The position numbers are program-made. DNA of 6,764 bases from a virus. Its lineage: Duplodnaviria; Heunggongvirae; Uroviricota; Caudoviricetes. The number at the start of each line of letters is the position of its first letter. Positions within the stretch are counted from its first letter, which is position 1. Positions 3,001 through 6,000 of this stretch are shown piece by piece. The stretch is from the IMG/VR virus record IMGVR_UViG_2660238215_000004; one strand, written 5' to 3'.

Positions 3001-6000
3001 GTAAGGCGCGTCGCCAGGGTAACCGCAATGCGTCGAATGTTTATCAGCTTAACGTTGCGAAGCTTCAGGCAGCGGCATTTTCTCAACTGTCAGATTCTGA
3101 CCCGTCAAAATCTGACGCATCAAAATCTGACCCGTCAAAATTTGATGCGTCGAAATCTGGCAAAAAAGCGGGTTTTCACCCGTCAGAATCTGGCGGGGAT
3201 CCGTCAGTAAAATCAAAACATGATCCGTCAGATAAAAAACCTTCTCGTCCGGACGCTTCGCAACCGGACACGCAGACGGCTGAACAGGATTTTTTAACTC
3301 GCCATCCTGATGCGGTTGTATTCAGCCCTAAAAAGCGCCAGTGGGGAACGCAGGATGATTTGACCTGCGCACAGTGGCTCTGGAAAAAAATCATTGCCCT
3401 GTACGAGCAGGCCGCCGAATGTGACGGCGAGGTGGTTCGTCCCAAAGAACCGAACTGGACAGCATGGGCAAACGAAATTCGCCTGATGTGTGTGCAGGAT
3501 GGTCGTACTCACAAACAAATCTGCGAGATGTACAGCCGCGTCAGCCGCGATCCGTTCTGGTGCCGTAACGTGCTCAGCCCGTCGAAGTTGCGGGAAAAAT
3601 GGGATGAGCTTTCCCTGCGCTTATCGCCGTCCGTCAGCACGCACACAGAAAAACGTGAAGACCCGTACTTCAAAGCCAGTTACGACAACGTGGACTACAG
3701 CCAGATCCCGGCAGGATTCAGGGGGTGATCATGAGTCTTTTGAATGACGTTCAGAAATTCATTGAAGCCCATCCGGGCTGTACTTCCGGAGACATTGCAG
3801 ATGCTTTTGCTGGTTACTCACGGCAGCGCGTTCTGCAGTCAGCAAGCAAGTTACGTCAGAGTGGGCGTGTGGCTCACCGTTGTGAAGGAGATACACGCAG
3901 ACATTTCCCGCGCCTGACTGAGAGAGCGCAGGAGCCGGAACCACAATCTGTTCGTGAAACCAGACCTGTGCGCAATTTCTATGTCGGCACTAACGACCCC
4001 CGGGTGATTTTGTGCCTGACCCGCCAGGCTGAAGAACTGGAGTCCAGGGGCTTATTCCGTCGAGCTGCAACGGTGTGGATGGCGGCATTCCGTGAAAGCC
4101 ACTCCCAGCCAGAACGAAACAATTTTCTGGCGCATCGTGAGCGGTGCTTACGGAAAAGCAGCAAGCGCGCTGCATCGGGTGAAGAGTGGTATCTGTCAGG
4201 GAATTACGTGGGGGCTTAATGAGTAATAAATATTGCCAGGCGCTGGTGGAGCTGCGGAACAAACCAGCCCATGAACTGAAGGAAGTGGGCGATCAGTGGC
4301 GCACGCCGGACAACATTTTCTGGGGAATTAACACCCTGTTTGGCCCGTTTGTTCTGGATCTGTTTACTGATGGTGATAACGCCAAATGTGCCGCTTATTA
4401 CACTGCGGAAGACAACGCGCTGGCGCATGACTGGTCAGAACGTCTTGCGGAGCTTAAAGGTGCTGCCTTTGGTAATCCCCCGTACAGCCGCGCCAGTCAG
4501 CATGAGGGGCAATACATCACCGGCATGCGTTACATCATGAAACATGCCAGTGCTATGCGTGATAAAGGCGGGCGCTATGTTTTCCTGATCAAAGCTGCCA
4601 CCAGCGAAGTGTGGTGGCCGGAAGATGCAGACCATATTGCTTTTATTCGCGGGCGTATTGGTTTTGAACTGCCTGCCTGGTTTATCCCGAAGGATGAGAA
4701 GCAGGTGCCGACAGGCGCTTTCTTCGCTGGTGCTATTGCTGTTTTCGACAAGACCTGGAAGGGACCGGCAATCAGCTACATCGGGCGCGATGAACTTGAG
4801 GCATGTGGTGAGGCGTTTCTGGCGCAGGTTCGCCAGCAGGCGGAAAAACTGGTCAGGGAGATGGCGGCATGACGACGTTAACTCAATGCCAGCAGCAGGT
4901 GCTGGATATGCTGATTTCTTATCAGAAAGAACGTGGCTTCCCGCCAACCAATCAGGAGGTGGCAACCATGCTGGGATACCGTTCAGTGAATGCAGCGGTG
5001 GAGCATCTTCGCGCACTGGAGAAAAAAGGCGTCATCACGATAAAGCGTGGTGTGGCCCGGGGGATCACGCTTCATACCGTGGTGAAGGACGACGACAGCG
5101 AGGCGGTCGGGATTATCCGCTCACTGCTTGCCGGTGAGGAAAACGCTAGGCTGCGTGCAGCCCATTGGTTACATGAGAGAGGCCTGAAAGTATGAAGCTG
5201 CTCCTGCCTTTTCCGCCCAGCGTGAACACGTACTGGCGACACCCCAACAAAGGGGCGTTTGCTGGTAAGAGCCTGATAAGCGCGGCGGGGCGAAAATTCC
5301 AGAGCGCGGCGTGTGCAGCAATAGTTGAGCAGTTACGTCGTCTGCCGAAACCAACGTCGGCACCTGCTTCAGTGGAGATCGTGTTGTTTCCTCCGGATAA
5401 CCGGATCCGCGATCTGGACAACTATAACAAGGCGCTGTTTGACGCCCTGACCCACGCGGGTGTGTGGGAAGACGACAGTCAGGTGAAAAGAATGCTGGTG
5501 GAGTGGGGACCGGTTATCCCGGAGGGGAAGGTCGAGATCACTATCAGTAAGTACGAAAAAGCGAGTTGCAAATTAGCAACTCGGTAACGGAATTGAGCAA
5601 CACCCTAAATTTGGGTATTACCTCGTTAAAGATACTGTATTTATGAACAGTGTATCCTTGATAACTATTAAAAATCGCAGTAAGTTCATCCGGCATCAAC
5701 GAAAAGGGAGTGCAGTCCCGCTCGTGGATAAAAATTTGTGGAGAAACCAATGAATCAGTTGCTTGTAATTGATGGCGTTTCTGTGCGCCAGTACTTCGAA
5801 TCTAACTACTGTCTTAACGACCTTCAGAAAGCTGCTCTTCTTGCCGCTGGTGAGAATCGCTCCTCCCGTTCGCTGGAAGTTCACGAGTTTATGCGTCGTC
5901 CTGAAACGAAGGCTCTTGTGGAATTATTGGAAGAAGAAACTACGGGAGATTCCCGTAGTATTCCTGTCATCACCATTCAGGGGCGCAATGGTGGGACGTA

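Follow-up and report, generated by a model that had tools for sequence, protein, structure and literature searches.

The gene yfdN belongs to the early genes of lambdoid prophages of the SfV, mEp460 and Stx2c types, a widespread group. It encodes a two-domain PerC-family protein and, as read from the sequence of its junction, is translationally coupled to the replication initiator of the phage. The copy studied here occupies positions 3731–4219 of a stretch of viral DNA of 6,764 nucleotides, which was analysed as a whole and is called the window below. The invariable coupling to a phage replication initiator points to a job for yfdN that is internal to the phage, and we put the probability that YfdN serves as a DNA-tethered adaptor or counter-silencer on phage DNA at about 0.5.

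The yfdN gene and its operon

The genes and sites around yfdN on which the argument rests are as follows.

2787..3728, plus strand: O-like replication initiator with an HTH_36 N-terminus and a DnaD-like C-terminal domain (Pfam HTH_36, PHROG 391)
3096..3159, no strand: 15-bp iteron, 4.3 copies, TCTGACCCGTCAAAA, inside the initiator gene (Tandem Repeats Finder)
3654..3725, plus strand: conserved peptide at the extreme C-terminus of the initiator, REDPYFKASYDNVDYSQIPAGFRG, which co-travels with yfdN
3720..3725, plus strand: Shine-Dalgarno sequence AGGGGG of yfdN, within the final initiator codons (read from the sequence)
3731..4219, plus strand: yfdN, two-domain PerC-family protein, 162 aa plus stop (open reading frame, DNA and protein identity, PHROG 1324)
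4219..4872, plus strand: phage Dam-type N6-adenine methyltransferase (Pfam Dam, E 1e-45; TIGR01712)

The reading frame of yfdN is intact and runs on the plus strand from ATG 3731–3733 to TAA 4217–4219. Its DNA is 100% identical to RefSeq yfdN, annotated as "PerC family transcriptional regulator", and its protein is 97% identical to YfdN of E. coli K-12. The RefSeq model starts at GTG 3725, which gives 164 aa; ATG 3731 is the better start, because it lies 5 nt 3' of AGGGGG and because MS(L/I) opens every homologue. PHROG 1324 matches YfdN over its full length (aa 1–161, E 5e-78), a 25-sequence alignment with 24 diverged members spans the protein over its entire length, and possession of both domains and of the W.L[AS]G.[YF].G tail places it, at the level of sequence, in the PHROG 1324 subfamily. 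The annotation as such is already known, as RefSeq, PHROGs and the EHEC literature all label the gene a PerC homologue. Our literature searches turned up no paper that assigns a function to YfdN and nothing relevant on SfV orf40; the data on YfdN are limited to a glycogen phenotype upon overexpression and to a filamentation screen in which a fragment with several genes was enriched (PMC2853380, PMC6206680). A PDB sequence search returned matches to the ClpC N-domain only, and with E ≥ 0.12 this likeness was dropped as chance.

The first-pass annotation had placed the gene in an early-lytic operon, and this placement holds: yfdN belongs to the rightward early operon of a lambdoid prophage, on the strand of cro, cII and the O-like gene, opposite to a cI-type repressor, the gene junctions around it overlap or abut, and no promoter-like or terminator-like site was found on the plus strand from the start of cro to the end of rusA. 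The Dam-type gene begins within the yfdN stop codon. It is missing from about 14 of 80 loci, on which ground Dam was rejected as an obligatory partner of yfdN, and in distant relatives an MT-A70 enzyme is found instead; the Dam-type gene is an optional cassette 3' of yfdN.

yfdN is carried by 2674 of 5426 complete E. coli genomes (about half), including that of LEE-negative K-12, and it occurs in the Shigella phages SfV, SfII and SfIV and in phage mEp460, with named homologues in Salmonella, Citrobacter and Hafnia. This spread across LEE-negative K-12, Shigella phages and other genera indicates that the distribution of yfdN follows the phage replication module and not the LEE.

Domain organization of YfdN

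The protein can be divided into four parts, all encoded on the plus strand.

3731..3910, plus strand: predicted winged-helix domain, aa 1–60 (AlphaFold2, Foldseek, PHROG 1687)
3911..3997, plus strand: variable linker, predicted disordered, aa 61–89 (pLDDT ~56)
3998..4159, plus strand: PerC/ANR-type three-helix core, aa 90–143 (invariant L103, R111, A112 and C139)
4160..4216, plus strand: C-terminal tail, aa 144–162, with the motif W.L[AS]G.[YF].G, which replaces the canonical PerC second half

AlphaFold2 models the first 60 residues with a pLDDT of ~95 as a winged helix with helices at 3–13, 19–25 and 31–43 and a beta-hairpin wing at 47–60. Foldseek superimposes this domain on the DNA-binding domains of ArsR/SmtB, MarR and BlaI/MecI at 1.6–2.5 Å over ~60 aa, the E-values of these fold matches being only ~1e-2, and the MarR-like PHROG 1687 matches the N-terminus with an E-value of 6.5e-5. 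The domain is basic in 20 of 25 homologues, and the conserved basic positions 36, 40 and 49 fall in the recognition helix and the wing. As modelled, aa 1–60 have a MarR/ArsR-like winged-helix fold whose recognition helix and wing are basic, and fold and charge suggest that the domain may bind DNA. Searches of Pfam, PHROGs and NCBIfam did not place YfdN by sequence in a curated HTH family; the HTH families of Pfam gave no match at E ≤ 1, and NCBIfam BilQ scored 17.5 bits where the cut-off is 125. The N-terminal ~90 aa had initially been taken for a separate winged-helix domain. The separateness is borne out by AlphaFold2 and Foldseek, but the domain is shorter than supposed, residues 61–89 belonging to the linker, which varies from 4 to 31 aa among homologues and is not conserved in sequence. 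The two-domain form, key residues included, is kept down to ~25% identity, and one variant (P0184) has two winged helices and a PerC core. In the models YfdN consists of two independently folded modules on a flexible linker.

The C-terminal half had been proposed to carry a PerC-family domain, and the profile search agrees: Pfam PF06069 matches aa 98–149 with an E-value of 7.3e-8 and 33.0 bits, above the gathering cut-off of 22.6 bits. Score and shared core residues thereby assign YfdN to the PerC family. The motif A.ELE..GL.RRAA..W is present exactly as described at aa 100–116 (AEELESRGLFRRAATVW), whereas the second motif had been misread as RR.CLR, the actual sequence at aa 136–141 being RERCLR. 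The four invariant core residues are the same in all of 30 sequences. Aligned without gaps, the core is 35% identical to EPEC PerC over 46 aa and 37% identical to PchE over 52 aa; likeness to PerC and Pch was compared on these two sequences. The match to PF06069 extends only over model positions 5–56 of 90, so that the C-terminal half of the model (...Y..MG...I.RNY) is not covered, and at 162 aa, with winged helix and linker, YfdN falls outside the size of single-domain PerC proteins (~85–105 aa). Its own tail, modelled with low pLDDT, has an invariant G157 and a nearly invariant G161 in the 25-sequence alignment, and sequence comparison did not find its motif in PerC or PchE. Porter and colleagues are said to have classified the PerC-like proteins in 2005.

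The core is modelled as a three-helix, TPR-like unit. Its TPR-like and three-helix fold matches are generic, and designed mini-proteins score similarly. One protein of 462 aa (P0183) with seven PerC-core matches was rejected as a eukaryote-like secreted peptide-repeat precursor, the seven matches being chance inflated by its repeats of EELEARGFFADAKSAW. NCBIfam NF033650 (ANR) matches 24 of 30 PerC-core sequences at E ≤ 0.05 (best 6e-12), and the window protein itself, with 19.1 bits at full length and 20.5 bits for the isolated domain, misses the family cut-off of 32 bits. The PerC core appears to be related to the protein-binding regulators of the ANR (Aar) family, and this kinship suggests that PerC, Pch and ANR proteins act through one shared protein-protein mechanism. 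Aar, which has no DNA-binding ability, binds AggR and H-NS directly (PMC5570504, PMC4983702), and by analogy protein binding is probably what the YfdN core does as well.

Coupling to the replication initiator

The gene directly 5' of yfdN matches PHROG 391 with an E-value of 9e-136. An initiator-type open reading frame holds this position in 79 of 80 close loci, which are phylogenetically non-independent, and in 5 of 5 distant homologues. In 77 of 79 loci the stop codon of the initiator ends 3 nt 5' of the yfdN ATG, and the junction of the window recurs in SfV and in one further locus (L004). A search for related loci with a 6-sequence alignment returned only copies that were 97–100% identical. 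The extreme C-terminal peptide of the initiator is common to at least three otherwise different initiator types, its motif, ...DY..(I/V)P.GFR, is kept in pairs whose YfdN proteins share only 25–47% identity, and in viral contigs a YfdN-type gene follows 119 of 119 evaluable initiator tails.

The iterons within the initiator gene are flanked by inverted repeats at 3091–3110 and 3173–3192. The origin of lambda lies within gene O, and by analogy with it the iterons at 3096..3159 are probably the replication origin. Neither the window nor the diverged loci nor the early regions as annotated in SfV and mEp460 yielded a gene for a helicase or helicase loader. SfV orf37 was considered as a hidden helicase loader and rejected, being an Ash-family regulator. 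The papers on Eru replication types of Stx phages do not mention yfdN, and Eru1–3, all of which contain helicases, are different modules.

Possible roles of YfdN

If YfdN is a DNA-tethered adaptor or counter-silencer, it would be made only after prophage induction or infection, its winged helix would tether it to DNA and its PerC/ANR-type helical unit would bind a protein partner. YfdN would then probably remodel a nucleoprotein complex, by analogy with Pch, which displaces H-NS, StpA and Hha from silenced AT-rich DNA, and with Aar, whose direct partners are H-NS and AraC-type activators (PMC5570504, PMC4983702). The target would most likely be the DNA of the phage itself, in the vicinity of its origin and early region, while an effect on host genes such as those of the LEE would be secondary and of unpredictable sign. 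Pch removes H-NS from LEE1, but Fukui et al. could not co-precipitate H-NS with PchA (PMC4764244), which leaves direct binding of H-NS by the PerC core unproven. The position of yfdN beside the initiator fits a role in replication equally well.

It is conceivable, though we consider it rather unlikely, that YfdN is the second component of an HTH_36/DnaD-like replication module and fills the slot of lambda P, in which case it would bind the initiator at its C-terminal peptide and assist in recruiting or loading the host helicase or in opening the origin. The place of yfdN immediately 3' of a coupled initiator, which holds for at least three initiator types and for YfdN proteins as little as 25% identical, agrees with this, as do the co-travelling peptide that is conserved in diverged pairs, the lack of a helicase or loader gene in all regions searched, and the iterons, which mirror the lambda origin. 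In a satellite-like element, PchE is likewise encoded 3' of genes for primase and SSB. The YfdN core is TPR-like, and C-terminal peptides are frequent ligands of TPR domains. On the other hand searches of Pfam, PHROGs, NCBIfam, PDB sequences and folds gave YfdN no similarity in sequence or fold to any loader, lambda P and DnaC included, the DnaD-like domain of the initiators might recruit host factors unaided, and short PerC-family relatives act on transcription and are also encoded at a distance from replication genes, as in the per operon of the EAF plasmid. The common initiator tail could also be a mere recombination joint combined with the ribosome-binding site of yfdN, and the close loci are phylogenetically not independent of one another.

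More generally, a very common lambdoid replication module with an HTH_36/DnaD-like initiator and without a phage helicase or loader might have YfdN-type proteins as its second, so far unrecognised component, a proposal to which we would give distinctly low odds. The winged helix would then occupy DNA near the origin, and the TPR-like core would dock on the initiator peptide or strip H-NS-type silencers from an AT-rich origin. Were this true, the short virulence regulators of the PerC, Pch and ANR types would derive from a phage replication accessory protein and consist of its domain alone. The matter concerns a gene that is locked to an initiator in about half of complete E. coli genomes, and phages of the SfV, mEp460 and Stx2c types that have no recognisable helicase loader.

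The suggestion in the first-pass annotation that the gene activates host virulence loci found no support, as YfdN matches only half of PF06069, has a replaced tail and has a distribution that is not linked to the LEE. That YfdN is a phage-borne PerC/Pch-type activator with the main role of switching on host LEE1/ler-like loci is therefore improbable. In its favour are membership of the PerC family, the core common to YfdN, EPEC PerC and PchE, and the identical yfdN copies in O55:H7 CB9615 and an O103:H2 strain, both of LEE-positive lineages; the IS3-family ends that flank the window also match O157:H7 and O26 genomes at 100%. Furthermore, PchA/B/C are SOS-induced and activate ler (PMC5931665). 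YfdN however lacks the PerC/Pch C-terminal half and has an additional winged helix, and its gene is found in about half of E. coli genomes, K-12, Shigella phages and relatives in Salmonella, Citrobacter and Hafnia. EHEC LEE1 reportedly needs pch for its activation in K-12 (PMC4764244), which carries yfdN (gene presence only), and in a LEE reporter strain yfdN was deleted only as a precaution (PMC5931665). Relatives differ as well: LEE1 is activated by PerC and PchA/B/C but not by PchD/E or by members encoded on PICIs, and EcCIMP1_025 represses it (PMC5931665, PMC6265319, PMC11773190). Tested members outside group 1 leave the LEE unactivated or repress it (PMC6265319, PMC11773190). The effects described for PchE and PICI PerC-like proteins comprise curli repression, flagella activation, no LEE activation and LEE repression (PMC6265319, PMC7369912, PMC11773190). 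As the YfdN subfamily shares only the helical core and the effects of family members differ in sign, the label "PerC family" says little about whether a protein activates virulence genes.

Finally, it is very improbable that yfdN is a functionless remnant of a decaying prophage, for although IS elements lie on both sides of the prophage segment that holds the window copy and the K-12 copy adjoins truncated neighbours in the cryptic prophage CPS-53, the reading frame is intact, architecture and key residues are conserved down to ~25% identity and the gene is present in phages SfV, SfII, SfIV and mEp460.

Comparison with known systems

K-12 YfdN (b2357, cryptic prophage CPS-53), SfV orf40 and RefSeq WP_013009328.1 are the same gene as that of the window, and the order initiator, yfdN, Dam-type methylase is common to all. 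The initiator 5' of yfdN is full length in the window, whereas in K-12 it is a 122-aa remnant (yfdO), and unlike the other copies that of the window is flanked by IS3-family ends; otherwise there is no substantive difference. Like yfdN, the gene for lambda P lies directly 3' of an origin-binding initiator in the same operon, and the C-terminal part of lambda O contacts P, but lambda P has no detectable similarity to YfdN in sequence or fold. The helix pattern of the lambda-type Ren protein resembles the N-terminus of YfdN at a level that is not significant (hhalign probability 20%; PHROG 142, E 0.008).

EPEC PerC, encoded on pMAR2/EAF plasmid, shares the core A..LE..G.[FY]RRAA..W...ER...R..C with YfdN, and both match PF06069. 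PerC is a single-domain protein of 89 aa that covers the whole 90-position model with 143 bits, whereas the match of YfdN is partial and a winged helix is added; perC sits in the perABC operon of a virulence plasmid, yfdN 3' of a replication initiator. Activation of LEE1 has been demonstrated for PerC and PchABC (PMC5931665), not for YfdN. PchE (ECs_1588, prophage Sp7) resembles yfdN in that its gene lies just 3' of replication genes, those for primase and SSB, that belong to a mobile element, and it is transcribed in a polycistronic early-type operon (PMC7369912). In contrast to YfdN, PchE and the PICI PerC-like proteins such as EcCIMP1_025 are 90-aa single-domain proteins with the canonical PerC C-terminal half. 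The ANR proteins are small three-helix units like the YfdN core, but they measure ~60–70 aa, stay under 10 kDa and have no DNA-binding domain, where YfdN has 162 aa and a winged helix, and their partners are AraC-type regulators, while the partner of yfdN is a phage initiator.

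Genomic context and identity of yfdN

The genes of the window make up a lambdoid early region, as assigned from their ORFs and profile matches.

Features of the early region (window coordinates, strand)
848-1540, -, cI-type repressor with HTH and S24 peptidase
1638-1898, +, cro-type gene
1891-2442, +, CII/CP76-type gene
2576-2797, +, DUF4222 gene
2787-3728, +, O-like initiator (HTH_36)
3731-4219, +, yfdN
4219-4872, +, Dam
4869-5195, +, LexA DNA-binding domain only
5192-5587, +, RusA
5738-6565, +, KilA-N

The first-pass annotation had placed yfdN in an early lytic operon, which is correct because neighbouring genes from the initiator through to rusA overlap or abut and no promoter-like or terminator-like site was found on the + strand from the start of cro to the end of rusA. 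The yfdN ORF is intact, with 162 codons from ATG 3731 to TAA 4217-4219 (+). RefSeq starts the gene at GTG 3725; ATG 3731 is the likelier start, as a Shine-Dalgarno sequence (AGGGGG) lies 5 nt ahead of it and every homologue begins with MS(L/I).

The DNA of this ORF is 100% identical to yfdN in the complete genomes of several E. coli strains, O55:H7 CB9615 among them, where RefSeq labels the gene "PerC family transcriptional regulator"; the original observation was accurate, but the annotation is already known. The gene was found in 2674 of 5426 complete E. coli genomes. The encoded protein is 97% identical to K-12 YfdN (b2357) of cryptic prophage CPS-53, where yfdN follows yfdO, an initiator remnant of 122 aa, and precedes yfdM, a Dam remnant. 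yfdN is orf40 in Shigella phage SfV and is also present in SfII, SfIV, mEp460 and Stx2c-converting phages, and PHROG 1324 ("transcriptional activator") matches YfdN over its full length (E 5e-78). In the EHEC literature it is "the K12 unique PerC homologue" and was removed as a precaution from a ler reporter strain (PMC5931665). No function is assigned to it in the literature found, where the data are limited to a glycogen phenotype on overexpression (PMC2853380) and the enrichment in a filamentation screen of a 5-gene fragment with a yfdN paralogue (PMC6206680).

The slot after yfdN holds Dam (PF05869; window 4219-4872) or MT-A70 (PF05063) in different phages, the adenine methyltransferase lying at 1912-2580, 1095-1739 and 648-1172 in the compared loci L008, L011 and L012, respectively. 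About 14 of 80 loci lack Dam and have an empty slot, and distant relatives have an MT-A70 enzyme instead; Dam is an optional neighbour and the slot behaves as an exchangeable cassette. The 108-aa product of 4869-5195 is a LexA-type DNA-binding domain alone (Pfam LexA_DNA_bind, E 3e-19; PHROG 362, 'transcriptional repressor'), without S24 peptidase or dimerisation domain. Its gene keeps its position across the module, and the protein could sit on LexA boxes yet be uncleavable. The termini of the window (1-61 and 6744-6764) are ends of IS3-family insertion sequences: 41-61 and 6744-6764 form a 21-nt inverted-repeat pair (86% complementary), and bases 1-61 match, at 100% identity, the ends of 'IS3 family transposase' elements in O157:H7 and O26 genomes. 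This early-region copy is bracketed by two IS elements, since the 100% match to E. coli genomes is confined to the prophage segment between them (62-6743).

Domain architecture and PerC membership

Searched exhaustively, 1.84 billion representatives yielded only 96 relatives at E <= 1e-3, yet full-length proteins of 138-165 aa are retained down to about 25% identity. Their alignment has four parts: an N-terminal module (MS..V..FI..NPG....IA.A), a variable linker, the PerC core and a tail specific to the YfdN subfamily (W.L[AS]G.[YF].G). An AlphaFold2 model built on this alignment follows the same division.

Predicted segments of YfdN
aa 1-60, winged helix (three helices and a beta hairpin), pLDDT about 95
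aa 61-89, linker, pLDDT about 56
aa 90-143, three helices, pLDDT about 97
aa 144-162, tail, pLDDT low

Against the PDB, Foldseek matched the first domain to DNA-binding winged helices of ArsR/SmtB, MarR, BlaI/MecI and PerR, with about 60 residues superposed at 1.6-2.5 A. In 20 of 25 homologues this domain is basic, and basic residues are conserved at 36 and 40 in the recognition helix and at 49 in the wing. These matches and basic positions bear out the winged helix proposed earlier for the N-terminal ~90 aa, although AlphaFold2 and Foldseek limit it to 60 aa, the rest being linker. A variant from the search of representatives, P0184 (214 aa), has two tandem winged helices followed by a PerC core that narrowly misses the Pfam cut-off (21.5 bits; cut-off 22.6), so the pairing of winged helix and PerC core recurs in further forms.

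The suspected PerC relationship was recovered by profile search, the check proposed for it at first pass (PF06069, aa 98-149, E 7.3e-8, 33.0 bits; gathering cut-off 22.6). EPEC PerC, the founding member, encoded on plasmid pMAR2, gives an ungapped alignment to aa 98-143 (35% identity), and EHEC PchE aligns to aa 94-145 (37%). One motif reported at first pass, A.ELE..GL.RRAA..W, matches exactly at aa 100-116; the other reads RERCLR (aa 136-141) and not RR.CLR. When aligned jointly, YfdN-type proteins, PerC and PchE share a core, A..LE.KG.[FY]RRAA..W...ER...R..C, in which L, R, A and C are invariant. By sequence YfdN is a statistical member of the family, yet it lacks half of canonical PerC and carries an additional domain, as the PF06069 match spans only model positions 5-56 of 90 and the proteins diverge after the Cys, PerC and PchE continuing with ...Y..MG...I.RNY and YfdN with W.L[AS]G.[YF].G.

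Coupling to the replication initiator

The strongest contextual signal for yfdN is its tight coupling to the initiator. Among 80 viral-contig loci (YfdN 97-100% identical), an initiator-type ORF directly precedes yfdN in 79, ending 3 nt before the ATG in 77 and overlapping in 2; the lone exception has nearly no upstream sequence. At least three types of initiator are represented. The type seen in the window, of 313 aa, accounts for 46 loci; an SfV type of 272 aa has an overall identity of only 31%; and in another type, of 330 aa, the N-terminal half is different. Their last ~24 residues are common to all (REDPYFK[AS]SYDNVDYSQIPAGFRG). The arrangement recurs in five distant homologues (25-47% identity), whose genes overlap the stop codon of an O-like/DnaD-like initiator, and the tail motif [FY]K.S[YF].[ND].DY..(I/V)P.GFR is kept despite differing initiator bodies. 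When the back-translated tail was scanned in viral contigs a YfdN-type gene came next in 119 of 119 evaluable matches, which are mostly close relatives and therefore not independent. Wherever a YfdN-type gene comes next, the peptide is kept even though the initiator bodies are otherwise unrelated. The end peptide (...SYDNVDYSQIPAGFRG) lies at window 3654-3725 and occurs also in loci L004, L008, L009, L011, L012 and L014. The peptide may serve as a docking motif or may mark a recombination joint.

The synteny would agree with a role for YfdN as a replication accessory that fills the lambda P slot and docks on this tail. Such a role is unlikely, however, as YfdN has no loader similarity and the initiators already carry a DnaD-like domain. 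No helicase or loader was recognisable in the window, the annotated SfV and mEp460 early regions or the diverged loci; SfV orf37, considered as a candidate, is an Ash-family regulator.

Within the initiator gene, 4.3 tandem copies of a 15-bp iteron (TCTGACCCGTCAAAA) at 3096-3159 specify the protein's repetitive SDPSKSDASKSDPSKFDASKS linker and are flanked by inverted repeats (3091-3110 and 3173-3192). The lambda ori lies inside gene O, and the iteron region is probably the phage replication origin, laid out likewise.

Proposed role and relation to known regulators

The suggestion that YfdN activates host virulence loci is unsupported, because tested family members differ in effect and yfdN is carried by LEE-negative K-12 and by Shigella phages. 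Activation of ler is seen with PerC and PchA/B/C but not with PchD or PchE, the last of which represses curli and enhances flagella; the PerC-like proteins of the PICIs EcCIEDL933 and EcCICFT073 have no LEE1 effect; and EcCIMP1_025 is a LEE1 repressor whose ANR similarity was also noticed by the authors who described it (PMC5931665, PMC6265319, PMC7369912, PMC11773190). With homologues also named in Salmonella, Citrobacter and Hafnia, the distribution follows a phage module and not LEE, and a host LEE activator is improbable. A functionless remnant, set against the intact reading frame, is the least credible reading.

Many conjugative and mobilisable plasmids of enterobacteria have annotated short PerC-family genes (matches H40-H75), at about 34-40% identity to the YfdN core; tblastn gave matches in 223 plasmid records, of which only about a dozen reached >= 80% identity. 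In O157:H7 Sakai prophage Sp7, pchE adjoins the 3' side of primase and SSB genes in a small satellite-like element (L013 23601-27045), so that a short PerC-family gene stands beside replication genes in another kind of mobile element as well.

The most likely reading, with a probability of about 0.5, is that YfdN is a DNA-tethered adaptor or counter-silencer which would be made after induction and act chiefly on phage DNA. The remaining interest lies in its uncharacterised function, the coupling to the replication module and the link between PerC and ANR. The NCBI ANR model NF033650 (Aar-type AraC negative regulators) matched 24 of 30 PerC-core sequences (best E 6e-12), the window's own domain scoring 20.5 bits, under the 32-bit cut-off. 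By analogy, the PerC core is most plausibly a protein-interaction module. Pch lowers H-NS occupancy, co-precipitation of the two was not obtained, and LEE1 activation by Pch occurs only via relief of H-NS/StpA/Hha silencing (PMC4764244). Aar, a three-helix protein of 63 aa, lacks the ability to bind DNA, and AggR and H-NS are its direct binding partners (PMC5570504, PMC4983702).
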